The notes under the pieces were generated by a model. That model was not told the DNA's origin. It was given only the letters and a program-made list of their open reading frames with translations, and ran no database searches. A stretch of 12,846 nt of DNA from a virus. Location: UHGV virus genome UHGV-0072830. One strand, given 5' to 3'. The first letter of the stretch is position 1. Each line of letters opens with the position of its first letter. Made by a program: the position numbers and the translations under genes. Shown piece by piece: positions 1-12,846 of the stretch.

Positions 1-6
1 AAACTT

Positions 7-525
7 TTACTGGCGAAGGTCATCCGCCCCCCTGATATTCCAGATAGCCATTTCCACTTCGCGACGGTTCATCAGTCCTTTCCATTTATGGCCTGCGGCA
101 AACACCCAGCGGGCCATCTGGTCACGCGCTCCGGCGTAATCACCGGCATTGAGTTTTTTCAGCAGCGTTGATTTACTGAATGCGGTAACACCGGTGTTGA
201 AAATAAACGTTGCCAGCGCCGTTTTCTGATATGGCGTCAGCGGCACCCTGACAAGACGATCGATTGCCGCATAAACCGGTTTTAAATCACTGTCGAGGAG
301 AGCCATACACTCCGCATGGCTGTAACGGCGCATTTCGATATCCGGCCCGGTATGCCCCACACAGACCGAAAGCACACCGCCAATATCGCGGTAAGGCATA
401 TAAGCGATATTTTCCAGGTGGATCAGAGACTGACGGGTCATTTCCTGATAACCACCCACACCGCCACCGGCAATCGTTACAGCCAGCAGTGTGGCTTTCA
501 GTTTTTTTGGTATCCCCGCCATCAT
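7..525 (-). CDS. lys: Endolysin with N-terminal signal-arrest-release (SAR) hydrophobic segment (KKLKATLLAVTIAGGGVGGYQ); phage lysozyme
   Basis: 172-aa ORF, ATG at 525. Gly/Ala-rich hydrophobic N-terminus typical of SAR endolysins. Position immediately after C as in Mu. Weak SD (GGAAG). Confidence 0.8.
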   Translation of the reverse strand: MMAGIPKKLKATLLAVTIAGGGVGGYQEMTRQSLIHLENIAYMPYRDIGGVLSVCVGHTGPDIEMRRYSHAECMALLDSDLKPVYAAIDRLVRVPLTPYQKTALATFIFNTGVTAFSKSTLLKKLNAGDYAGARDQMARWVFAAGHKWKGLMNRREVEMAIWNIRGADDLRQ

Positions 526-596
526 GCTTCCCTGAAAAAATGCTCTGATGGCAGTCTAAAAAATCAGGTGGCAGGTGCGGGATTATGGTGACAGGA

Positions 597-621
597 AATA
601 ACCGGCAGGATGCCGGTTATT
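597..621. terminator. Perfect hairpin (aataaccggca-gga-tgccggttatt) overlapping the C stop codon; possible middle-transcript terminator, T-rich tail on both strands
   Basis: 11-bp perfect inverted repeat with 3-nt loop read directly from sequence. Followed by TATTT on the phage strand and TTTTGGGCTTT on the plus strand. Confidence 0.45.
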
Positions 622-1039
622 TTGGGCTTTCAGGTGAGAACAGATCAGGCTGATGACGTCGTGTATGCAGCTTTCTCTGGCGGGCAATAATCTGGTAGAT
701 CTGCGGCTGGGACAGGCGGTACTGGCGACGCAGTTCTTCCATGTTACGACCATTAAACTGGCAGTAAAGCAAATCGTCGCGTAACGCGGTCAGGATCGTA
801 TCGCCGCAGGGGATGTAAAACTGCCGTCCACCCAGAAAACAGGACAGGGCAACGGCCTGTTTACGGGCAAGTTCACGGGGATTGCTGACGTTCTGGCGTT
901 TCAGTTCGTTTTCCAGAACATCAATCAGATCAACCACCGAACGGGGCCAGCGTGATTCCAGTTCCGGGGCCGGGATGTTATCAATATGTCCGATTAACTG
1001 GCGAATTGCCGGATCGTGTTCAAATAAATCATGCTGCAT
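617..1039 (-). CDS. C: Late transcription activator C (Mor/C family)
   Basis: 140-aa ORF with SD GGGGGA upstream of ATG. C-terminal half shares motifs with the Mor ORF in this window (GG.Q.YIP.G, FNGRN..EL). Position upstream of lys. Confidence 0.8.
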   Translation of the reverse strand: MQHDLFEHDPAIRQLIGHIDNIPAPELESRWPRSVVDLIDVLENELKRQNVSNPRELARKQAVALSCFLGGRQFYIPCGDTILTALRDDLLYCQFNGRNMEELRRQYRLSQPQIYQIIARQRKLHTRRHQPDLFSPESPK

Positions 1040-1151
1040 ATTTTCCCCCGGTTAACAGACAAAAAGATACACCACGGCACTGATGGTTATCAAAACCACA
1101 AGGGCAATCACTTTTATCGCATTAATCAGCGTGGACGGCCCGAAACATTCA

Positions 1152-1436
1152 TCACTGAATTTTCTGTACACAATATTTTTCCTTATAACGTTGACAGTGG
1201 TGAAGAATTTCCGGCATATCAACTGACTGCCAGCCTTTCATGTAATAACTGCCGTGGGTGCCATCGTGCCCTGTGTAATCCATTGGCTTTGGTGGTGGGC
1301 CTCCGGCCTCCCGATGTAATACCTCCTGTCGTAAACGTTCACGCCTGCCGAACTGAAAGGACGCATCCCACCCTTTACCCATGCAGAACCTCCCGACAGG
1401 CGCTGGCGAGCAGATCCAGACGGTTAAACCAGCCAT
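1152..1436 (-). CDS. Hypothetical small ORF in middle operon; real start and reality uncertain (possible internal ATG at 1283)
   Basis: 94-aa ORF from the track overlaps the 3' end of the upstream gene by 62 nt and has no convincing SD. It fills an otherwise unexplained 335-bp gap between the GH108-like gene and C. Confidence 0.25.
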   Translation of the reverse strand: MAGLTVWICSPAPVGRFCMGKGWDASFQFGRRERLRQEVLHREAGGPPPKPMDYTGHDGTHGSYYMKGWQSVDMPEILHHCQRYKEKYCVQKIQ

Positions 1437-1935
1437 TCAGATATTTCCCCTGCGAGGCACTGGATTTGATAATCCCTGCGTAATAGCGGGAACGACGCAG
1501 GAAGCACTGCAACAGCAGCCAGTCAGTATCGGCACGCAGAACGGCTGCGCGTGTGTTTTTACCGACGATGCCATCATCATCAACACCTGCTGCCGCCTGG
1601 AGGATCTGAATCGCGCGTTTAACACCGTGCTGAACGGCAGCATCAAAAACGAATAAGGAAACGCCATCAGGCCATTCGTTACACTTTGCCGCCAGCCAGT
1701 AATCACGCCAGTAGATCTGCGCCGCCTGCTCGCGGGTTAAATCCTTAATGCGGGTATCAGGTTTTCCGTCACCGTTAACATCGGTTTTGCCATCAATAAC
1801 GCCGTCGCGACGGTCAGAAATACCGTATTTCGTTTCGCCGCCACGGTCGGCAGGATCATTAACATAGCCACCTTCAACATCAGGGCGTATAACGAAATTC
1901 AGCGAATGAAGGAATGCAGGGGAAAACTCAGGCAT
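1375..1935 (-). CDS. GH108-family-like muramidase with C-terminal peptidoglycan-binding-like domain
   Basis: 186-aa ORF, ATG at 1935 preceded by a perfect AGGAGG SD. N-terminal EGGYVNDPADRGGETKYGI motif is characteristic of GH108 lysozymes. C-terminal GWFNR-type motif resembles the associated PG-binding domain. Family assignment from memory, not searched. Confidence 0.7.
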   Translation of the reverse strand: MPEFSPAFLHSLNFVIRPDVEGGYVNDPADRGGETKYGISDRRDGVIDGKTDVNGDGKPDTRIKDLTREQAAQIYWRDYWLAAKCNEWPDGVSLFVFDAAVQHGVKRAIQILQAAAGVDDDGIVGKNTRAAVLRADTDWLLLQCFLRRSRYYAGIIKSSASQGKYLNGWFNRLDLLASACREVLHG

Positions 1936-1987
1936 GTTGCCCTCCTGTCATGAACGTTTTATCGTCACAACAGAATATTGAGGGCGT

Positions 1988-2010
1988 AAAAAAAGCCGGA
2001 TTAACCGGCT
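1988..2010 (-). terminator. Rho-independent terminator directly after mor (early-operon terminator)
   Basis: On the phage strand: AGCCGG-UUAAU-CCGGCU followed by UUUUUUA, preceded by an A-tract. Starts 8 nt after the mor stop codon. Confidence 0.7.
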
Positions 2011-2017
2011 TTACTGT

Positions 2018-2407
2018 TTAAAACAAAGGGGGGGAATACTGACGATACTTTATACGCCGCATTCGTCGGATGGCTTTATAGACTGTGTTAAATGTCACAC
2101 CATGACGGATTGCCAGTTCGTGAACATTGCGACCGTTGAAATCATTCCAGATACGCAAATCCCGAATAAGCGAATCCAGAACCTGACCGCGTGGAATGTA
2201 GACCTGACCGCCGCCCAGATGCTTACAGATAGCCACAACAATCTCCAGTGAATGGGCCGGGTCAACACCTAACCGGGACAATTCCCCGCGCAGTAAATCG
2301 TTCAGCTCCGCCAGCAGTGCCGGAAAGCGTGACGTATCCTCTGCGGGATTGTCAAGATGTGCCAGGATGGTGTCATCCTGCAAATCACCAAATAAATCTT
2401 CCGTCAT
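2018..2407 (-). CDS. mor: Middle operon regulator Mor (Mor/C family transcription activator)
   Basis: 129-aa ORF. ATG overlaps the gemA stop (ATGA). C-terminal HTH region is paralogous to the C ORF. Size and position match Mu mor (recollection). Confidence 0.85.
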   Translation of the reverse strand: MTEDLFGDLQDDTILAHLDNPAEDTSRFPALLAELNDLLRGELSRLGVDPAHSLEIVVAICKHLGGGQVYIPRGQVLDSLIRDLRIWNDFNGRNVHELAIRHGVTFNTVYKAIRRMRRIKYRQYSPPLF

Positions 2408-2955
2408 TGTGCCATCCTCCGTGTCTTTCTGGCACGGGCATAAGCCGCCGTCATGGCATCATAGCCGCGCAGTTCACGCCCGGACGGACTGACTGGCAAC
2501 GGAAGCCCGTGACGGGAAAAGGCTTCACGAATACAGCGGATATGCCACTGCTTGAGAGTTTCGAGAACAATCAACAGGGTGTCGCCATGACACCACGCCA
2601 GCGTGGAAACACCCTGTCCGCCATTACGTTTCGCCGTCAGGCGCTGAACATATTTATCCAGCGCCACATCACCGCCATCGGTAATAAAACCGTCTTCTGC
2701 CATCTGCTGCCAGACTTTGTATACCTTCTCGCGGGGCGTGACATGCCCCTTAAAGCGGCGACGTGGATGTTTATTCAGCTTCTTAAAGCCGCGTTCTTTC
2801 ATGGCATCGAGCACCTGTTCCAGTTGCGTAACCGTCAGCTCGCGGCAACTGATTTTGCCCGTTTTCTGCATCAGAAAAGCGCGGTAAGTGTCGTCGTCGA
2901 GTTGTAGCTCCCGACGGGCGACATGGATTAATTTAATCAGGGATGTGCGATTCAT
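2404..2955 (-). CDS. gemA: GemA-like early regulatory protein
   Basis: 183-aa ORF immediately upstream of and translationally coupled to mor. SD GGAGGT. Position and size as Mu gemA (recollection). Confidence 0.75.
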   Translation of the reverse strand: MNRTSLIKLIHVARRELQLDDDTYRAFLMQKTGKISCRELTVTQLEQVLDAMKERGFKKLNKHPRRRFKGHVTPREKVYKVWQQMAEDGFITDGGDVALDKYVQRLTAKRNGGQGVSTLAWCHGDTLLIVLETLKQWHIRCIREAFSRHGLPLPVSPSGRELRGYDAMTAAYARARKTRRMAQ

Positions 2956-3024
2956 GATCGTACCTCCGGAAAGAGGCGGTGCTGCAACACCGCCTGAATT
3001 TACACATCAATCAGAGAGGATTTT

Positions 3025-3291
3025 ATGGAAAATAATGTACAACCTTATGATGTTGCAGGTTATGCGATTGCATCAGCACTGGTGCGCCTTCTGGTGAAGA
3101 AGGCGATCATCACCGCAGAAGAGGGCCAGGCCATTTTCAGCTCTTCAGCAGAGATTTTAAAAGATGCGCCTGCAATAAGAACAAGCCGCCGCGAAAACAT
3201 GCAACTGTCAAAGATCATGGAAGACATTATCAGTTCGTTAGACCCAGATGCTGACGGATCTCAAAAGCCTCAAACACATGAGCGTCAGTAA
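3025..3291 (+). CDS. Candidate opposite-strand small protein (88 aa) in the early-operon gap; uncertain
   Basis: ORF with SD-like AGAGAGGA 4-5 nt before the ATG. Sits in a 274-bp gap between early genes and overlaps the convergent 3230..3532 ORF by 62 nt. No promoter identified. Confidence 0.3.
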   Translation: MENNVQPYDVAGYAIASALVRLLVKKAIITAEEGQAIFSSSAEILKDAPAIRTSRRENMQLSKIMEDIISSLDPDADGSQKPQTHERQ

Positions 3292-3532
3292 CAATATCCT
3301 GGTCTGATAACCCCAGCCTGCGGCGGATGTACTCCTCGCGGGCTGTTTCATTTTGCAGTGCCACTACTGTTTCCAGACGATTCATTTCGCGGTTGATAAT
3401 GTCACGGACTTCTCTGGCGGTGAGATTATGCTTAATACCATATTCAACGATAGCGCGAACACGTTCCAGCATCCCTTTTTCAGCCATGACGTTATCAATA
3501 TTAAGGGGAGTAAATTTATCTTCATTGTTCAT
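3230..3532 (-). CDS. Hypothetical early protein (100 aa)
   Basis: ATG at 3532 overlaps the stop of the upstream ORF (ATGA coupling). Colinear with the early operon. Confidence 0.7.
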   Translation of the reverse strand: MNNEDKFTPLNIDNVMAEKGMLERVRAIVEYGIKHNLTAREVRDIINREMNRLETVVALQNETAREEYIRRRLGLSDQDIVTDAHVFEAFEIRQHLGLTN

Positions 3533-3837
3533 TTTGCGGCCCTCAGAATAAATTCAGGATAAAATTTCAGACTCATTTGCCGTAACACATCCAGTGCAGC
3601 AACGGCTGCTGATTTATCGTTGCCATCAGCAATAGCGCGGAGATTTTCAATAATCCAGTGAGGACTCAGTGACTCAGCAATAATGCCAAACCGGTACGCC
3701 ATGACCTCATCAATAGCTTTTTCATGAGACGGCTCATATACAAAATTCACAAAGTCATGCACTTCTTTTTTCGGCAAACCACCGGCAATCAGCAGGGCGG
3801 CAAGCTCTTCTGATTTTGAAAATACACCATTATTCAT
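3529..3837 (-). CDS. Hypothetical early protein (102 aa from ATG at 3837; track ORF extends to GTG at 3852)
   Basis: ATG at 3837 preceded by AAGGTGA SD and lying 1 nt after the upstream gene stop. Confidence 0.7.
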   Translation of the reverse strand: MNNGVFSKSEELAALLIAGGLPKKEVHDFVNFVYEPSHEKAIDEVMAYRFGIIAESLSPHWIIENLRAIADGNDKSAAVAALDVLRQMSLKFYPEFILRAAK

Positions 3838-3838
3838 G

Positions 3839-4021
3839 TCACTCACCTTCACAATTCATGCACGCCGTGTCATCGCCCATATCGCAGTGGTTACATTTCT
3901 GCCCGCCACAATGAGGGCACTCTTTCAGATATTCAGGGGATTCATTACCGCAGGTCGGGCATTCCTGTTTCACCGTGGTAAATTTCCCCAGCCACGAATA
4001 CGATGTTTCATTGTTTTCCAT
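3839..4021 (-). CDS. Small Cys-rich protein with four CxxC(x)G repeats (DnaJ-like zinc-finger pattern)
   Basis: 60-aa ORF with GGAGGT SD. Motifs CPTCG, CPHCGG, CNHCDMG, CMNCEG give 8 Cys in four CxxC pairs. Confidence 0.7.
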   Translation of the reverse strand: MENNETSYSWLGKFTTVKQECPTCGNESPEYLKECPHCGGQKCNHCDMGDDTACMNCEGE

Positions 4022-4538
4022 TGTTTACCTCCGCCTGTTTTTGCGCCCGGATAAATTCGTCAGAAAGGATTTCAGTCATGCGGCCCTGTGCGGGAGTCAT
4101 CCCTGTCATGACGTAAATCACATCACCAACACGGAACCACCGGAGCGGGCCGAATATTGTTGCGCTGAAATCCAGTCCCAGTGCGGGTAAGAGAGCGTCA
4201 GTACGGGCATAAGTGACCGGAATATTCTCCTGCCATATTTTCGCCAGCTCTTTTGACTGCTCCCGCAGATGTGCAGGAATGCGCGATGTTCTTGGCCTGC
4301 AACTGTTACCTGATGCGGAGCGTTGTACAGTCCACAACTCCGGCGAGAAAGGTCGCTCATTCCCCGGAAAATTCACGCCATGAAAATGACGCCCACCAAT
4401 ACCTGTGCTGAATACTGACCGGCAACCACAACCCAGAACCTTATCAAGATGGCGGGCTTCTTCGCGTAGTTTCAGGCAGTCCGCCATAAACTGGTCCCAT
4501 GCCAGCAGTGCTGCGGGATTTGACGTTTTAAAAAACAT
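4008..4538 (-). CDS. Hypothetical early protein (176 aa from ATG at 4538; track ORF starts at TTG 4577)
   Basis: ATG at 4538 overlaps the upstream stop (ATGA) and is preceded by an AGGAGG SD. Confidence 0.7.
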   Translation of the reverse strand: MFFKTSNPAALLAWDQFMADCLKLREEARHLDKVLGCGCRSVFSTGIGGRHFHGVNFPGNERPFSPELWTVQRSASGNSCRPRTSRIPAHLREQSKELAKIWQENIPVTYARTDALLPALGLDFSATIFGPLRWFRVGDVIYVMTGMTPAQGRMTEILSDEFIRAQKQAEVNNGKQ

Positions 4539-5068
4539 CACGCCACCTCCTGCACCGCTGCGGGAGCCGGAGAACAATCAAGAATGAGATAACGCAGTAC
4601 ATGGTCGGTGATATTCCAGGCGCTGGAACTGCAAATAAAACGCCCCAGCCGGATATCGATATAAGCCATCACAAAACGGGGCATTCCCTGTTCGCACATT
4701 CTGTTATCCACCTCAGCAACAATGTGAACTGACTCACAGGTCAGCACGCCCGTCGCAAACTCTTTTGCCAGCGCGGGGATGGTATTACCTTCCACCCAGG
4801 GTAATGAGCGACGCCAGTTGCACCACACCGCATCATCAACAGCAGGCTGCTCAGTTGCGTTTCGTCTTACAGGCGGCGTCGGACGCGGGCGCGGAACGTC
4901 ATAAAATCCGTTGCATTCGGTGAGCACTCCGGCATCAACCGCATCACGCAGGAAATACACCATTGACGAGGGCAGCATATTCATTTTTTCAGCCAGAACT
5001 CCGCAGGTCAGGCGTCCGTAAGCCCGTAATAATGTGCTGACACCATTCAGAATTTTTGCATCAACCAT
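4538..5068 (-). CDS. Hypothetical early protein (176 aa), Pro-rich linker between two domains
   Basis: ATG at 5068 with GAGGA SD. Internal PRPRPTPPVRR linker. Confidence 0.7.
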   Translation of the reverse strand: MVDAKILNGVSTLLRAYGRLTCGVLAEKMNMLPSSMVYFLRDAVDAGVLTECNGFYDVPRPRPTPPVRRNATEQPAVDDAVWCNWRRSLPWVEGNTIPALAKEFATGVLTCESVHIVAEVDNRMCEQGMPRFVMAYIDIRLGRFICSSSAWNITDHVLRYLILDCSPAPAAVQEVA

Positions 5069-5166
5069 GTTTTATTCCTCAGTAATCTGTTTCAGGCGCG
5101 AGCAATCCCCTGACGTATCGCGCCATAATTAAAAGAATGTGAATTAATTAAATATTAATGGTGGTA

Positions 5167-5691
5167 TTAAATACCGGCTTCCTGTTCAAATGGAATAATA
5201 GAAAAATCCTCAATGCCTGATTTAACTGTAATTCCGGCAACGCCTGCGACCGCTTTCGGTTCCAGTAAAATCGCTTCCTTGTTGATTTCCTGCTTCGTGC
5301 GAATAAAGCGTTGCAGGCCAAGACGCTCCAGCGTTTCCATCACTGCATCCATACCACGAATACTTACTGATGGCGGACGGACCCGCCACGATACATCACC
5401 GGTGACAAGATTCGCCGTCTTCACTTTGCCGCCGTTCGTCAGTTCGTCGCGGTTCGCTTCACACCATCCCTGAACGCCTTTTGAAAGGGTTTCAATATCG
5501 GTTTTAATCGGTGCAATCCGGGCTGCAAATTTCTCCGTAATTTCCGCGATGGCATCATTCATTTCCGTTTCCAGACGTGATGCTTCGCGCTGTAAATCCC
5601 CGATGCGTTTAATATCGGTAATCACCGCATCGCGGTTTTGTGGCACATAAGCCGCTGCGGCACTTTTGATACGTTTTGCTGGTTTAGCCAT
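5167..5691 (-). CDS. gam: Host-nuclease inhibitor Gam (Ku-like DNA-end-binding protein)
   Basis: 174-aa ORF with AGGAG SD. Sequence (MAKPAKRIKSAAAAYVPQNRDAV...) matches my recollection of Mu Gam. Not verified by search. Confidence 0.88.
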   Translation of the reverse strand: MAKPAKRIKSAAAAYVPQNRDAVITDIKRIGDLQREASRLETEMNDAIAEITEKFAARIAPIKTDIETLSKGVQGWCEANRDELTNGGKVKTANLVTGDVSWRVRPPSVSIRGMDAVMETLERLGLQRFIRTKQEINKEAILLEPKAVAGVAGITVKSGIEDFSIIPFEQEAGI

Positions 5692-5710
5692 AAATTAAAG
5701 CTCCTGTTAA

Positions 5711-5998
5711 TTAATATCCGCTGTATACAATGCTGGATACAGCTCGATTGCTTAATTCCATCTTTCGGGCAATGACATGAATATCCAGTCCTTCTTTATA
5801 AAGTTCACGACATAAATATTTGTCGTGTTCACTGATTCGGTATACACACAATGATATTCCGTGCCTTCTGGCATGTGCCCGGAGGGCGGTTGTGGCGACT
5901 TTCAGTTTTTCCGCCATTTCTTCAATGGTCATTTTCCCGACGTTGGCTTCGATAAATTCCCGGTCTTCGCGTGACCAGCGCTTACGATTACACTTCAT
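5711..5998 (-). CDS. Putative DNA-binding early protein with two HTH-like segments (95 aa from ATG at 5998; track start 6010)
   Basis: GGTGA SD before ATG 5998. Segments TIEEMAEKLKVATTALRAHARRHGIS and a LuxR/GerE-like pattern near the C-terminus. Confidence 0.65.
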   Translation of the reverse strand: MKCNRKRWSREDREFIEANVGKMTIEEMAEKLKVATTALRAHARRHGISLCVYRISEHDKYLCRELYKEGLDIHVIARKMELSNRAVSSIVYSGY

Positions 5999-6010
5999 GT
6001 CAGTCACCAT

Positions 6011-6430
6011 TCAGTACAGCAGAGGCTCGCGCAGTGATGCCGGAATATGCCGCAGCGATAACTGAACCGCTTTCAGGGCAAGCGAGGAATAACAGCAGCG
6101 CGCCCAGCCTTTTGCCATTAACCGGTAATCGCGCCAGATACGCTGCCACATTTCACGGGCTTCAGGGTCTGATGCGCAGATGTATTCCCGGTCCATGACG
6201 TACTCCCATAAATCCACGTTGAACGCACCGCCAAATGCAATGGCGCGGGATATGCTTTCGCCGCAATAACGTGCACAGATGCTGTAATGGTCGAAAGCAA
6301 TCAGGTAAGTCTTTTCACCACAATCATCAACTTTCCGGGCGCAAATAAACTCGCGTAATTCACCACCGTTGTTATTGCGTTCCTGAATTCGGATTAATGC
6401 CTGAATTTCATTTCGGATTTTGACGTTCAT
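6011..6430 (-). CDS. Hypothetical early protein (139 aa)
   Basis: ATG at 6430 with AAGGAA SD. Stop abuts the next gene's start. Confidence 0.7.
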   Translation of the reverse strand: MNVKIRNEIQALIRIQERNNNGGELREFICARKVDDCGEKTYLIAFDHYSICARYCGESISRAIAFGGAFNVDLWEYVMDREYICASDPEAREMWQRIWRDYRLMAKGWARCCYSSLALKAVQLSLRHIPASLREPLLY

Positions 6431-6450
6431 TGTCAGCGTTCCTTTGCGAA

Positions 6451-6720
6451 TTAATGTTTAACCGCATTCACCGGATGTGGTACTAAATCACATTCAGCTT
6501 CCATACCCACTTTCTTCATAGTGGTCAGCATCTCATCTTTGGCCTTTTTAATAATTTCAGGAGCCATAGTCAGGACGATATTTGCCAGTAAATCATGAGG
6601 CCCGATATTTTCCGTTGGCGAGATATCTGCAAGACATGCTTTTGCATCCAGAACTTCTCTGCGCCCATTGCAACCGTCACTACTTTCCAGCCATGTAAAC
6701 TCAAAGATAACTTTTGCCAT
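6451..6720 (-). CDS. Hypothetical early protein (89 aa)
   Basis: ATG at 6720 with AAGGAG SD. Confidence 0.7.
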   Translation of the reverse strand: MAKVIFEFTWLESSDGCNGRREVLDAKACLADISPTENIGPHDLLANIVLTMAPEIIKKAKDEMLTTMKKVGMEAECDLVPHPVNAVKH

Positions 6721-6731
6721 TTTGCGTCTCC

Positions 6732-6962
6732 TTATTGATTCTGAATAACTGCGCTGGCTTTTACCTTCGCGCCTTTTACCTGCTTAAAGAAAACCGCGCT
6801 GCACCACGGACAACATGCAAAGGAGTCCCATACTTCATTTTCTGGTGAGCATTGCGTCATAATTTGCTCTTTGCATTTGGGGCAATTAAATGCAGTCAGA
6901 GCCACATTGTTATTCTGTACCCGTTTAACCCATTCAATATATTTTTCAGCTTTAGTACACAT
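6732..6962 (-). CDS. Small Cys-rich zinc-ribbon-like early protein (76 aa from ATG at 6962; track start TTG 6986)
   Basis: ATG at 6962 with GGAGA SD, 2 nt after the kil stop. Motifs CPKC ... CCPWC. Confidence 0.65.
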   Translation of the reverse strand: MCTKAEKYIEWVKRVQNNNVALTAFNCPKCKEQIMTQCSPENEVWDSFACCPWCSAVFFKQVKGAKVKASAVIQNQ

Positions 6963-6964
6963 CG

Positions 6965-7192
6965 TTATCTCCAGATAATCTGGCAACCATTAAGACGGGC
7001 CGTCCATACAGAACGGGCCACCCCGGACTTATGCTCCATAATTCTGACCGCGTTTTTTACCAGTTCCACCGGTGGGTAAGTGATTTCAAGAATCGGACGC
7101 GCCACGCCGAGATATGATTCATTTACATGACTCCCGCGCGCCTGTAACCAGTTCTGCGCATCCGTTGCCATTTTTATATTTCGGGCCATCAT
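6965..7192 (-). CDS. kil: Kil-like protein (first gene after B)
   Basis: 75-aa ORF with AAGGAG SD overlapping the end of B. Assignment is by position and size only (Mu kil directly follows B). Confidence 0.6.
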
Positions 7193-7207
7193 AATTTCTT
7201 CTCCTTC

Positions 7208-8146
7208 TTAATTACGCAGCAGCGTTGAAATATCAACGTCCAGGTCTAATTCACGGAAAGCCTGACGCAGATAATCTTCGTTAACACGCTCACCTTTACC
7301 GTGAGCCGTCATGGCGGCAAGGCGAAGTGAATGATTCAGAATGCGAAGCGCACCTGGTTTCTGCGCAATCTGCTGTAATAACTCCAGTTCTTTTTCGCCG
7401 TTAATCTGCCAGGCATCCGCAATAGCTTTTACATCGGCTTTTTTTGTTTTATTAATTGCAGTGCGCTTTGCAATACGGGAAAACAGACGGGCAAATTCAA
7501 CCGTTCTGTTACCCCCCGTCATATTTGAATAAACCCGGTGATTTCCCATCAGCACAAGGCCAATACGGGTTGATTCCTGTAACAGGCGGAGTTCTTCCAG
7601 AACTTCGGCACCAAGATGATCAGCTTCGTCGATGATAACCAGCCCCTGTGTACCTTCAAGGCGACGTCGCAGGGCGCGGGAGAGCGGCCCTTTACGGCGT
7701 GGTGCGTCATTCATTCCCAGCTCAAACGCCAGTTCAGTAAGACATTCCAGAACGCTGGCACAGGATGGCGTAATGGTGATCATCCAGACATTGTTATTGG
7801 TGCGGCGATATTCACGGGCCGCTTCGGTTTTGCCCACACCAGGATTGCCACATACAACAGCAATACTTTCAGTCAGGCTGGCAAAACGCATACTTGTCCA
7901 GATTTGTTTTACCGTCTGCGTTTCCACAAAGCGGGGCGGTTCAGGTAGTTCTGCAACTGCATGATATTTTTCCAGCCAGCGTTGCAGAATTTGTGAAACA
8001 CGCTCGTTATCCCCGTTGTACTTATCATTGATAAAACTACTGATAGTTCCGGTAGAAAGTCCGCTCTCAAGAGCAATTTGTTTAAAGGTGGTTTCTTCAT
8101 TTTCTACAAGCGTGCGCAGTCCTGCGCGAATATCGGAAATATTCAT
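7208..8146 (-). CDS. B: Transposition protein B (AAA+ ATPase target DNA activator)
   Basis: 312-aa ORF with Walker A GNPGVGKTE and Walker B LVIIDEADHL. Sequence matches my recollection of MuB. Confidence 0.93.
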   Translation of the reverse strand: MNISDIRAGLRTLVENEETTFKQIALESGLSTGTISSFINDKYNGDNERVSQILQRWLEKYHAVAELPEPPRFVETQTVKQIWTSMRFASLTESIAVVCGNPGVGKTEAAREYRRTNNNVWMITITPSCASVLECLTELAFELGMNDAPRRKGPLSRALRRRLEGTQGLVIIDEADHLGAEVLEELRLLQESTRIGLVLMGNHRVYSNMTGGNRTVEFARLFSRIAKRTAINKTKKADVKAIADAWQINGEKELELLQQIAQKPGALRILNHSLRLAAMTAHGKGERVNEDYLRQAFRELDLDVDISTLLRN

Positions 8147-8184
8147 CTGAATAACCTCGTAATTAAATTTTGTTTAAACGTTAA

Positions 8185-10185
8185 TTAAATGGCTTTTTTA
8201 CGTCTGTTCTGTTCCAGAATATCCAGCGAATGATTCAGATATTCATCACGCTCAGTTTCGTATTCATCATCACGCTCCTGATTCTTCACCCGTTCCATAT
8301 TACCGGAAGGCCGGAAAATGCCGACAATTCGTGATTCTGGTGCTTCAGGTTCGGCTATCTGCGGCAGCAGCTCTGCCACTTCCAGTGCATCCATTTGTTT
8401 CTGTGCCTTAATCGCTGCTTTCGTCGCAGATTTCAGTTGTTTCTGGCGGCGGCGATATTCACGGCCTGCCGCAGCATCATTAAACGCAACAGGTGACAGA
8501 CATTCCGCTTCACAGATAAACCGACCGTCCAGGGTGTAGCAATAAACCGTGCTGTGTAACTGCTGTGGATCAAATCTGACCACAACTTTTTTCACTCCGG
8601 CATTCATTAACGCCATGTTGTAATAAACGTTTTTCGCACCTTTAAGGGAGCCGCCAACTTTAAGCGCGAACTCGCCTTTACGTGAAACGTTCACCGCCTC
8701 GGCAGGCAGTAACAGCATCCGTTTTTGCTCTTCGGTAGGCTTACGCACAATCGTTCTGGCGTATTCACGCTCAAAAACGTCATCAAACGAAAGTTTGCCT
8801 CCGCACATTTCTGTTTCACGGCCTGTTCTGGCATTGAACATCGCCACACCTTCGGCAAGGGTTTTCAGAAACAGCTCTGCATCAACAGCGCGGTCGCCAT
8901 AGTTATCAGGTTTTGCCTGCGGATTAGGCCCCGTATATGCGCCAGCCAGTGCCGGATGCTTATCAACGTATTCCTCAAGCCCACCAACACCGAAAGCACG
9001 TTCAACAGGTTTTGCCTGGCCCCAGCCTTTACCGGCAACAACGCTTGTCCAGTGCATTTTCGCCCCCATCAGTAAAAACAGTCCTTTTGGATCGTCCTCT
9101 TTTACCTTAAAGCGGTAGCGATTGGGCGCGCCTCCCGTCAGCCATTTATTCGCAGCACCACGGGTGTTATCAATGGTGATGTGAAAATCCTCCGGGATAC
9201 CGTAGCGAGTCACAACATCCATGAACGAGAGGCGAATTGAATCAATGTTCTCGCTCACATCGCAGCGCCAGCCCAGAATTTTTCGGGTTTTCACATCCTG
9301 CCAGAACCATGTTTTCGGGCGGATCACATCACCGTTAAACCAGCGTACAAAGACGTTATGCAGATAACCGTCGCCGTTGATCCACTGCATGGCGTCCAGG
9401 TGTTCCACAGTTCGTTGTTGTGCCGGTATCAGATGCATCAGTGCATGTTCACCTTCACGGCAGGCAACAACCATTGCCTCGTTCAGTTGCTGAATCCGGC
9501 GAAAGGCCGTGGCACGGGAGGGAATACTCCAGCCATGCTCGCGGGCTGCCAGTTCCAGACGCTCATAACATTTGCGGAAGGCGGGTTTTTCCGGTCGCAG
9601 ATAATCTGCAATCAGAAACTGCCAGGCATCCTCGTCAAATTCACTTTTGTGAACATTGCGACGGGATGCACCACGTCCATCAACAAGAGCAGCCGCCCAG
9701 TCAGGCTTCGCAAACTTCTGTACCTGGTAATACTTGTCACGCAAAGTGGATGCGCTGACCTGGTAATGTCCTGCAACGGTCGCAAAAGCCGTTTTTGTTG
9801 AAATCCCCTGGTTCAGCATTTCGTCTGCGGCCTGAACCGCAGGCAACCATTTTTCAGCAAGTCTGCGCTGGGAATCGCTGGCGTTATCCCATTTGCTCCA
9901 CAGCGCCTCGCGATCATAATCGTGGGCTTCCAGCGTGGGGCGGGCGATTTCAAAACGGCCCATGCTTGTTTCAATCTCTCCTTGTCTAAGCAATAACGCA
10001 GCTTGCGTTTCCTTTGGTAAAGATGAGATATGAAACTCATAGGCTACTCCTCTTACCCCGTGTATCTGTCGAAACACCCACTGTTCTAACCTTGCTTTAC
10101 GAGAGATCGCGCTAGAGGATTTTGGAAGACCTATCAGCCCTTCTAATTTCTTTGCAGAAAACCAATCATTACATTGTGGTTGCAT
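8185..10185 (-). CDS. A: DDE transposase A (Mu/D108 family); likely start ATG 10185 (track ORF starts at TTG 10191)
   Basis: About 666 aa. The body matches my recollection of MuA (from [11 protein letters not shown] onward). N-terminal ~60 aa differ from Mu and resemble the repressor N-terminus in this window. GAGGT SD 7 nt before ATG 10185. Confidence 0.95.
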
Positions 10186-10187
10186 TT

Positions 10188-10406
10188 TCAATACCTCGAA
10201 GGCCAGAGGTCTCGTGGCTCAACTCCCAATGCATCGGCAATAATTCTTTCACCCCGAGGGTAAGGTTTATCCAAGGCATTTTTTACCGTAGAGATAGAGA
10301 GACCGTTCTCACGACCAAGAGCTGCTAGGCTTTTTCCTCTTTTGCGCAGATCAGCAACAATGTCGTATCTGCTTTTGTCTTCACATTTACTTTTCTTTAT
10401 CGCCAT
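10188..10406 (-). CDS. ner: Ner-like DNA-binding regulator (negative regulator of early and repressor transcription)
   Basis: 72 aa from ATG 10406. C-terminal ...[13 protein letters not shown] resembles the Ner family. Stop is 2 nt before the A start. First gene of the early operon. Confidence 0.8.
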
Positions 10407-10415
10407 AAAATGCAA

Positions 10416-10605
10416 TCCTCACAAGCTACGCCATCAGCTACGCCGCAAGGTAGCTGACAAGGTATGCAGCAATGTTAGTGTGAATACATTGTCAATGCAA
10501 TGATGTATTCAAATATTTCGTTTGAATTTCATCTATCTTGATGATTTTAAAATGAATATATTTTTGTTTCTTTGAATACACAGTGTATTTAAAGCGAGGT
10601 TTGTG
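10416..10605. promoter_or_regulatory. Immunity/operator region between ner and c; expected to hold divergent early and repressor promoters and the operators (transposition enhancer in Mu-type phages)
   Basis: 190-bp AT-rich divergent intergenic region. Contains palindromes built on TGAATACA half-sites at 10481-10511 and 10570-10594, and a GC-rich dyad at 10434-10457. Confidence 0.75.
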
Positions 10606-11121
10606 ATGACACAAGAATGGTTTTCAGCTAAAGAGCTACAAGGGGTTGCTGGTCTTCCGTCTTCAGCAAGTAGTATTAGCCGCAAAGCAACTAATGAGGG
10701 ATGGAAAAAGAGACAGATCAAAGGAGTAAAGGGAGTTGCTTATGAATACCATATCAGCTCATTACCTGATGCCACTCAGGCAGAATTAGGAGGGGCGCAG
10801 TTATTAGATAGCGATAAGCCAGCTTATAAGTTAGCTTCTGTGTTAATGGCTTTGGTCGCAGAGTTAGAACCAGAGGAAATCCAGAGGGCATTAAAGCTAC
10901 TTAGTAAAGGCGGACTTGGAGCACTAATGCCAAGTATCTTTGATCAGACTCAAATCCAATCTCTGCACGGCGTATCGCGTGAGTGCATACAACTAGCCCA
11001 AATGCTAGAAACTTTACCAGCAGATGCGCGCAAAGAGATTTTGTCAGAGTATGGTATTCATGAACAGGAAGGTTTTGTAGCTCCTTCACAAGAACCACAA
11101 GATGTAAAAAAAGCCGTATAA
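10606..11121 (+). CDS. c: Lysogenic repressor c (D108 type)
   Basis: 171 aa from ATG 10606 with GAGGT SD. N-terminal domain is homologous to the N-terminus of transposase A in this window. C-terminal LKLLSKGGL...[13 protein letters not shown]...[12 protein letters not shown] matches my recollection of the Mu repressor C-terminus. Confidence 0.85.
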
Positions 11122-11287
11122 CAACCATGAACCAGCTAAAACATACTTCACCTCACATAATCACACATGTAACATACCTAAACGGCATGAGCTGATTTGT
11201 GATATGAGTCATTTGGTTACAGCCTGGTTGTTATCGGTTTTGAACGTTTTTTGAAGCTGTTATTGAAATGATTTGCTGTGTTTTTGT

Positions 11288-11309
11288 TTTTCGTATTTTC
11301 AATGAAACA
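11288..11309 (-). repeat. Transposase end-binding site L3
   Basis: ttttcgtattttcaatgaaaca shares the TTTCGYRYTTCA..GAA core with the two other sites. Lies about 151-172 bp from the terminus. Confidence 0.7.
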
Positions 11310-11327
11310 AAAGCAATTTTTTACTAT

Positions 11328-11349
11328 CTTTCGCGTTTCATTGATTAAC
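11328..11349 (-). repeat. Transposase end-binding site L2
   Basis: ctttcgcgtttcattgattaac. Lies about 111-132 bp from the terminus. Confidence 0.7.
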
Positions 11350-11432
11350 GACTAAAATTTGCGCTACAGGCTTGCAAGCCCCACCAAATCTAATCCCATC
11401 AGATCCCGAATAATCCAATGTCCTCCCGGTTT

Positions 11433-11455
11433 TTTTCGTACTTCAAGTGAATCAA
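11433..11455 (-). repeat. Transposase end-binding site L1 at the phage left terminus
   Basis: ttttcgtacttcaagtgaatcaa, followed by the terminal ...taca at 11459. Confidence 0.8.
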
Positions 11456-11459
11456 TACA

Positions 11460-12846
11460 ACGGGGGATTACTCAATTGGTTTGCTAAGTCAAACGAGTGG
11501 AAACCTGAATACTGACACCATAATAAGAGTCAACTCTGACGGTTCGGTTACCCCCTCTTTTTCTGACGGAGATGATACATTTATTGTTACTGCGGGTAAT
11601 CACGCAGTCGGCGTTCTTGCGTGTGCATCTCCCGGAAGCGCGCGTGCGTGTGTATCTTCTCTTGATGAAGAAAGTACTACCGATACAGGAAGTAATGAAA
11701 ATAATGCCATAGCAAAACTGGATATGGCAAAAGGGGAGATCACAACCCACGGAACAGAAAGTTATGCCGCGTACGCTAATGGCACTGTCGTCAAGGCTGG
11801 TGACACGCTTGATTATACCAATGCCAGCGTTACATTAACCGATGTTGATATCACCACGCATGGGGACAATGCTCATGCCATCGCTGCCCGCCAGGGGACA
11901 GTTTCATTTAACCAGGGAGAAATTTATACAACGGGTCCTGACGCCGCGACTGCTAAAATTTATAATGGCGGCACGGTGACGCTGAAAAATACATCTGCAG
12001 TCGCGCATCAGGGGTCTGGAATTGTGCTGGAGTCTTCCATAAATGGTCAGGAAGCAACGGTAGATATTTTATCTGGTAGCTCACTACGGTCAGCAAATGA
12101 AATCCTCTACCATAAAAATGAGACGAGTAACGTGACCATTACGGATAGTGAGGTATCATCGGCTGCAGATGTTTTTATCAATAATATTAAAGGTCATTTG
12201 ACCGTCGATGCAACTAATTCAAAAATAACGGGTTCAGCTAATATTTCAACAGATGTTAACACTCATACCTATCTGTCGCTTTCAGATAATAGTACCTGGG
12301 ATATTAAAGCTGACTCAACGGTGAGCAACCTCACGGTTGATAATAGTACGGTCTATATTTCCCGGGCAGATGGACGGGATGTCGAACCAACAAGATTAAC
12401 AATAACTGAAAATTACGTTGGTAATAATGGCGTATTGCATCTCAGAACTGAATTGGGTGATGATAATTCAGCTACGGATAAAGTCGTTATTAATGGAAAT
12501 ACCTCTGGAACAACCCGAGTTAAAGTTACCAATGCAGGAGGCAGCGGAGCTTACACGTTAAATGGGATAGAGATTATCAGCGTTGAGGGGGAATCAAATG
12601 GGGAATTTATTAAGGATTCGAGGATTTTCGCCGGTGCCTACGAATATTCATTAACCCGAGGTAATACCGAAGCGACCAATAAAAACTGGTATCTGACTAA
12701 CTTCCAGGCAACGAGCGGCGGTGAAACAAACTCCGGAGGAAGTTCAGCGCCTACTGTTGCGCCTACCCCCGTCCTGCGCCTCGAAGCTGGAAGTTACGTC
12801 GCCAACCTGGCAGCCGCTAACACTCTTTTTGTTATGCGTCTGAACG
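11460..12846 (+). pseudogene. Host autotransporter (type Va) passenger-domain gene fragment, 5'-truncated by the prophage insertion; runs off the window end
   Basis: 462 stop-free codons verified in frame from the base after the phage terminus to the window end. Nearest upstream in-frame stop (11448-11450) is inside the phage end. No signal peptide or plausible start. Ser/Thr/Asn/Gly-rich beta-helix-like sequence ends with the autotransporter junction motif PVLRLEAGSYVANLAAANTLFVMRLN. Confidence 0.75.

Follow-up and report, generated by a model that had tools for sequence, protein, structure and literature searches.

Background

Mu-type phages insert almost randomly in the host chromosome, often splitting genes, and gene disruption by Mu is a textbook phenomenon. 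Their target pentamers follow the consensus N-Y-(G/C)-R-N (that is, N-Y-S-R-N), and rearranged Mu junctions do occur. Packaged Mu DNA carries host DNA at both ends, of which only about 50-150 bp lie at the left end of the phage.

The host gene considered here belongs to a family that is already known. Genes of the ECIAI39_1904 family, a group of type Va autotransporters, are used in the literature as a presence/absence marker only (PMC5654935), and the K-12 gene ycgH is listed as a 'pseudogene- autotransporter' (PMC4447067). Intact alleles of 882 aa are carried by strains IAI39, 88-3493 and an O169:H41 strain.

The window, i.e. the whole analysed stretch of 12,846 nucleotides of UHGV virus genome UHGV-0072830, joins the left part of a Mu-like prophage to a fragment of such an autotransporter gene. 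In all likelihood, this prophage was inserted by MuA/MuB transposition into an M8-type autotransporter gene that was already non-functional.

Phage part of the window

The following features were recognised in the phage part (window coordinates, strand, description):

1..11459, minus: left ~11.4 kb of a Mu-like prophage (Muvirus, PhiR68_1 immunity type), assigned by nucleotide identity and gene content
7208..8146, minus: MuB-type transposition ATPase, 312 aa (identical sibling products match PF13401 and PF09077 Phage-MuB_C)
8185..10185, minus: MuA-type DDE transposase, 666 aa (Pfam HTH_Tnp_Mu_1, HTH_Tnp_Mu_2, DDE_2 and Mu-transpos_C)
10188..10406, minus: Ner-like early regulator, 72 aa (a 72-aa call with PF13693 HTH_35 stands at the equivalent position in all siblings)
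10606..11121, plus: phage repressor c, 171 aa (PF02316), reading towards the phage left end and the host flank beyond it
11122..11459, strand not applicable: phage left end (attL region), terminating in …CGTACTTCAAGTGAATCAATACA, with the same terminus in 10 sibling insertions

The early region contained in the window comprises genes for lysozyme, Mor/C-like, GemA, Gam, Kil, B, A, ner and c, and the c, ner, A and B ORFs are all intact; MuA and MuB genes adjoining a left end, together with a repressor and ner, identify a Mu-like prophage. Nucleotide comparison gave 97.8% identity with Escherichia phage PhiR68_1 over 85% of the query, 96.7% with Mu over 81% (in reversed orientation, beginning at base 1 of the Mu record) and 98.9% with the sibling locus L011 over 10.9 kb. 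At the protein level the repressor is 100% identical to its PhiR68_1 counterpart, against 46% identity with Mu c and 40% with D108 c. The repressor and the transposase N-terminus together form an immunity module distinct from those of Mu and D108, and the phage type, its repressor being that of PhiR68_1, is one already known. The module is very common in public assemblies: the exact repressor is listed in 4520 blocks of the collection and the exact 666-aa transposase in 3223, while the rarest protein of the window (89 aa) is found in 511. Searched by exact sequence, these three proteins led only to other insertion sites, and an exact-protein look-up of the 172-aa repressor ORF that would start at a GTG returned no record.

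Three further observations concern gene content. The repressor (10606-11121, plus) resembles the N-terminal ~70 residues of the transposase (9990-10185, minus), both matching PF02316. An ORF of 186 aa (window 1375-1935, minus) lies between two Mor-family genes; the usual lysozyme gene is present as well, at 7-525. In sibling loci the counterpart of this ORF has Glyco_hydro_108 and PG_binding_3 domains. The exact 186-aa protein was found in only one (L011) of 20 sibling loci compared, and a 186-aa gene call with these two domains occurs in L011, L014 and L031-L036, but in none of the other siblings listed. Finally, the loci L032-L036 (e.g. CP035836.1, CP066032.1) are Mu-like prophages that share the exact 89-aa early protein of the window and most of its semi-essential region; they differ from it by a CI-like repressor of 181-211 aa, a 697-aa transposase and a left end without TGTATTGATTCAC. 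Mu-like prophages such as these exchange their immunity and end modules in mosaic fashion.

Phage terminus and target site

The limit between phage and host DNA was established by comparing the terminus across 10 sibling prophages, defined as those returned by an exact-protein look-up with the repressor and located in ten different chromosomal contexts. At 11459 the phage terminus reads …GAATCAATACA, which is of the 5'-TG…CA-3' form and matches the Mu left end; its last bases, …CGTACTTCAAGTGAATCAATACA, are the reverse complement of the Mu L-end 5'-TGTATTGATTCACTTGAAGTACG. The junction in the window is …cgtacttcaagtgaatcaataca|acggggg…, the part before the bar being the reverse complement of the Mu left end. 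Taken alone, the window and the host sequence leave the limit ambiguous by 3 bp, because the ACA at 11457-11459 is also present before ACGGG in the uninterrupted host (GTCACA|ACGGG); a host-only alignment accordingly extends 3 bp into the phage end. The sequence …CAAGTGAATCAATACA is common to all 10 independent prophages with the same repressor and is followed by 10 different host flanks. Since the siblings diverge directly after …ATACA, the last phage base is fixed at 11459 and the first host base at 11460, the position that the earlier note had given for it. More broadly, the left end was matched in 44 of 5426 complete E. coli genomes, in 41 of these over at least 80% of its length.

The pentamer that follows the terminus, ACGGG, fits N-Y-S-R-N, as do 16 of 18 distinct sibling pentamers, against a chance expectation of 12.5%. 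The sibling flanks examined all differ, which is the pattern of random insertion sites with a target preference. Perfect 5-bp duplications were found in three of four siblings (PhiR68_1, TTGAA; SE11, ATCGG; E148, CAGAT); the SE11 prophage splits an Rpn-family gene and the E148 prophage a GntR/UTRA regulator gene. The fourth, 21KM1392, has no duplication, with GTGGG at the right end versus CTGGC at the left, and its left junction is common to Z0117EC0036. In this strain (NZ_CP151067.1; L037 position 2287, L021 position 8727) the prophage of ~36.5 kb is bordered by lptG on one side and by two-component and fimbrial genes on the other. The mismatch between its junctions is probably due to a later Mu-associated rearrangement or to an adjoining deletion.

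Identity of the interrupted host gene

The host part of the window contains the following features:

11460..12846, plus: host DNA, codons 119-580 of an ECIAI39_1904-family type Va autotransporter (passenger, autochaperone and start of the linker)
11460..11464, strand not applicable: ACGGG, predicted copy of the 5-bp target-site duplication, the second copy presumably standing outside the window
12315..12653, plus: autochaperone domain (Pfam AC_1, PF18883, E 4.4e-30, fragment residues 286-398)
12768..12830, plus: junction/linker motif PVLRLEAGSYVANLAAANTLF (in translation), inside the TIGR01414 match and between the autochaperone and the beta-barrel

The 1387 host bases (11460-12846) are 100% identical to many E. 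coli chromosomes, and 1414 complete genomes are at least 99% identical to this flank. On the chromosome of strain M8 the matching segment is part of an autotransporter gene flanked by ymgF and ymgD, at the ycgH locus; other annotations call the gene 'ECIAI39_1904 family autotransporter adhesin'. Orthology with this family is established at the ymgF-ymgD locus, where PGAP gives the same name to intact alleles and to IS-interrupted pseudogenes; among the NCBIfam families returned for the fragment and for the full allele, no model is named ECIAI39_1904.

A frame of 462 stop-free codons covers 11460-12845 on the plus strand. For random codons the chance of such a run is ~1e-10, and homology shows that the gene is real: the fragment is matched by residues 119-580 of the IAI39 protein, which is intact and 882 aa long, with 432 of 462 residues identical (93.5%). 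Besides AC_1, Pfam detected Pertactin (E 1.7e-9), and positions 7-149 of the TIGR01414 'autotrans_barl' profile match fragment residues 312-462. The autochaperone has homologues of known structure in the AIDA-I transport unit (4MEE) and the IcsA autochaperone (3ML3); 4MEE is also the closest solved structure, matching the intact allele over residues 431-882 (E 3.8e-82). Type Va autotransporters characteristically have a pertactin-like region in the passenger and an autochaperone at its C-terminal end. The beta-barrel itself is beyond the window, which includes no more than the initial ~150 positions of TIGR01414. In M8, whose allele is 100% identical, PF03797 covers residues 492-751 (E 9e-38), the Pfam beta-domain of the full allele beginning ~21 residues past the end of the window, and the protein terminates in …LKYKF. 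At its other end the fragment lacks an N-terminal Sec signal peptide, as it begins at residue 119; in the intact and M8 alleles a signal peptide, judged by inspection, occupies residues 1-23 (MKLKKLPGFSLGLIALAVGNAYA|EQ).

The reading from sequence alone had described a 462-codon stop-free frame running to the window end, without signal peptide, and ending in the junction motif typical of type Va autotransporter passenger domains. All of this agrees with the present data, notably the AC_1, Pertactin and TIGR01414 matches and the position of PVLRLEAGSYVANLAAANTLF, with the correction that the frame is in fact open from 11451, directly after the TGA of the phage end (11448-11450).

Position of the insertion within the gene

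The phage is located after nucleotide 354 of a gene of 2649 nt. As the fragment starts at residue 119, the signal peptide (residues 1-23) must be sought on the far side of the prophage. Phage-free relatives such as M8 read …GTCACAACGGGGGATTAC… straight across the insertion point, and the claim that a Mu-type prophage has its left end inside an autotransporter gene is upheld.

The first in-frame start candidates of the fragment are TTG at 11481 and ATG at 11724. The ORF created by the junction comprises 757 codons from TTG 11481 and is on record as P0002, in 3 Logan/ENA contigs, the longest of 25 kb; the exact-protein look-up returned no record of a 42-aa ORF spanning the junction. No complete E. 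coli genome contains the observed left junction, and searches of GTDB species genomes, JGI metagenomes and IMG/VR with the observed left and the predicted right junction (GATTGTCACAACGGG+TGAAGCGGCG) gave no match.

Another mobile element is present at nearly the same place in E. coli 55989 (L002, NC_011748.1): an IS1 at ~2742-3510 (window 11459-11467), at most 1 bp from the Mu site, with a 9-bp duplication AACGGGGGA and the junctions …CACAACGGGGGA|IS1|AACGGGGGATTAC…. Mu and IS1 are unrelated elements, and their meeting on the same few bases may be a coincidence or reflect a local hot spot. It is decidedly unlikely that ACAACGGGGGA, at codons 117-120, is a recurrent target of mobile elements, or that the host had a reverted intact allele; were the latter true, Mu would have genuinely knocked out an adhesin, and its insertion would mark a small clone (P0002, 3 contigs).

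State of the host gene before the insertion

Alignment of the M8 and IAI39 alleles revealed that M8 lacks 1 nt at codon 60 (GGG instead of GGGG), a position upstream of the insertion. In M8 this frameshift leaves a 69-aa ORF with the signal peptide MKLKKLPGFSLGLIALAVGNAYA… and a separate 773-aa ORF without one, annotated by PGAP in different frames as a 'hypothetical protein' and as an 'autotransporter outer membrane beta-barrel domain-containing protein'. The Mu site is 27 nt after the start of the 773-aa ORF, of which the phage removed only 9 codons as annotated. The 773-codon remainder is uninterrupted in M8 (gene at L001 5648-8295, frameshift at ~L001 5824), and its exact product is present on at least 1000 contigs. 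Rescue of the frame by programmed frameshifting or transcriptional slippage at the GGG was considered and rejected by inspection, there being no slippery heptamer and the run being too short.

The lesion was counted in complete genomes with this gene type using two 81-nt probes, corresponding to the frameshifted and to the G-restored M8-type sequence. The exact frameshifted 81-mer was found in 1400 of 1782 genomes, and the G-restored 81-mer had no full-length exact match in any complete genome (one record at 99% or more of the G-restored probe was not among the full-length matches, and was read as a partial match). Only 7 genomes match the G-restored probe ungapped with one mismatch; of the three that were fetched, two have intact 882-codon genes and one is frameshifted elsewhere, and all three alleles are 96.9% identical to the window flank (43 mismatches). 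Identity to the flank is 100% for M8, 99.9% for strain 503025 and 99.8% for 55989, versus 96.0-96.9% for the intact alleles examined. The other listed matches at 100% are H3-H30, and alleles at least 99% identical to the flank are all of the M8 type.

As the flank is 100% of the M8 type, which carries the frameshift, Mu most likely landed in an existing pseudogene. The presence of the frameshift in this particular host is deduced from allele identity, the 5' part of the gene being expected beyond the prophage; on this basis the host gene was very probably dead before the phage arrived. The shared G4-to-G3 lesion suggests that the gene became a pseudogene recently and that this state spread with a successful lineage. 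The earlier note had seen here a phage that split a surface adhesin gene, and had named as evidence against this a natural fragment existing without a phage in related genomes. The insertion is indeed inside a coding sequence, but the knockout of a working gene is not upheld, the alleles that match the flank (at least 99%) being already frameshifted at codon 60; the natural fragment was found in part, in the form of the 773-aa ORF, phage-free in ~1400 complete genomes.

Decay is a well-known feature of this autotransporter locus in E. coli, as illustrated by K-12 ycgH, by the ~1400 frameshifted genomes and by IS insertions (IS1 in 55989, IS2 in 503025 and IS903B in FAHZZU6014). Two allele classes are found at the ycgH locus, with the first 76 nt in common (L001 5648-5723) and different passengers: ~5000 genomes match these 76 nt, of which only ~1780 have the ECIAI39_1904-type passenger.

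Alternative explanations

It might be argued that the adhesin gene was intact and functional in this host and that the insertion of Mu was the knockout event. Intact 882-aa alleles do exist in the three strains named above, the 773-aa ORF of the M8 type bears no further lesions, the 462 codons of the window are clean, and reversion of the host to G4 is conceivable. The flank is nevertheless identical to the frameshifted type and several percent away from every intact allele examined, and a full-length M8-type GGGG is found in none of the complete genomes against 1400 with GGG, which makes a knockout very unlikely.

The other two alternatives concern the junction rather than the gene. A Mu-mediated deletion or inversion, or recombination between two prophages, would place the right end against unrelated DNA, without the ACGGG duplication. 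One sibling in four (21KM1392, its junction shared with Z0117EC0036) has indeed different loci on each side and no duplication; the three others are clean 5-bp insertions, two of which (SE11 and E148) each split a single annotated host gene, and ACGGG fits the Mu consensus as expected of a primary insertion junction. Such a non-simple junction is therefore unlikely. That the window is not chromosomal at all, and represents either host sequence attached to packaged virion DNA or a chimeric assembly, is exceedingly improbable. Host DNA at both ends of Mu virions and the absence of the exact junction from all complete E. coli genomes would be compatible with it; against it, the join is exactly at the canonical terminal CA and on a consensus target pentamer, and the 757-aa ORF created by the junction was recorded from 3 independent contigs. 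Packaged DNA in particular was rejected, as the host DNA at the left end (at least 1387 bp) is far too long compared with ~50-150 bp in virions, and the phage was therefore considered as an integrated prophage.

Proposed insertion and its consequences

Insertion of the prophage into a pre-existing pseudogene would have proceeded as follows. The deletion at codon 60 would have put the signal peptide out of frame with the remainder of the protein before the arrival of the phage. MuA/MuB transposition would then have placed the phage at the target pentamer ACGGG, after nt 354 of the gene, so that the 3' seven-eighths of the gene begin at its left end, while the 5' 354 nt should border its right end, ~37 kb away. 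The far junction is presumed to be that of a simple insertion with duplication of ACGGG; in this case the far flank would end in …GTCACAACGGG beside TGAAGCGGCG, i.e. …GTCACAACGGG|TGAAGCGGCGCACG…, and the right-end junction would read …AAAAACACGATTGTCACAACGGG|TGAAGCGGCGCACGAAAA…. If the gene was already a pseudogene, …GGAAGTTACGGGTATCC… (with GGG) should be found ~180 nt upstream of the right-end junction. Because rearranged Mu junctions occur, the far flank need not be the 5' end of the gene.

No convincing intrinsic terminator was predicted between the repressor gene and the junction; as this gene points at the flank, read-through into the truncated ORF is possible. Lacking a signal peptide, the product of the 757-codon ORF should be unable to reach the outer membrane, and no phenotype is expected. 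In itself the event is commonplace and of little importance, being a random phage insertion that is unlikely to have had any consequence. Its value lies in annotation, the 462-codon frame being the 3' part of a prophage-interrupted pseudogene and not an adhesin, and in the use of the junction as a clonal marker for the strain.

Comparison with known systems

The phage part resembles the members of Muvirus (Mu, D108, SfMu, PhiR68_1) in its terminus, 5'-TGTATTGATTCACTTGAAGTACG…, in its early gene order (c, ner, A and B, through Gam, GemA and Mor to lysozyme) and in its nucleotide sequence (96-98% identity over 81-85% of the window). As in these phages, the prophage site differs from one genome to another, with 5-bp duplications in siblings. 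It differs from Mu and D108 by its immunity module, the repressor being of the PhiR68_1 type, and from Muvirus phages by the additional 186-aa ORF.

On the host side, the autotransporter of IAI39 (WP_000768537.1) is encoded, like the gene of the window, at the ymgF-ymgD locus, and is identical to it at 432 of 462 positions over residues 119-580; the allele of the window is however of the M8 type, elsewhere frameshifted at codon 60, and is here interrupted by a prophage as well. E. coli K-12 ycgH occupies the same locus, is also a decayed autotransporter and shares the first 76 nt (signal peptide region), but its passenger allele is not of the ECIAI39_1904 type. AIDA-I has the same architecture, in which an autochaperone and a linker precede a 12-stranded barrel, and its NCBIfam model is matched with E 5e-27; the score of 94 bits versus a model cutoff of 1200 bits designates the protein as a relative and not as AIDA-I itself, and the family of the window has a shorter passenger, with a putative adhesin function.
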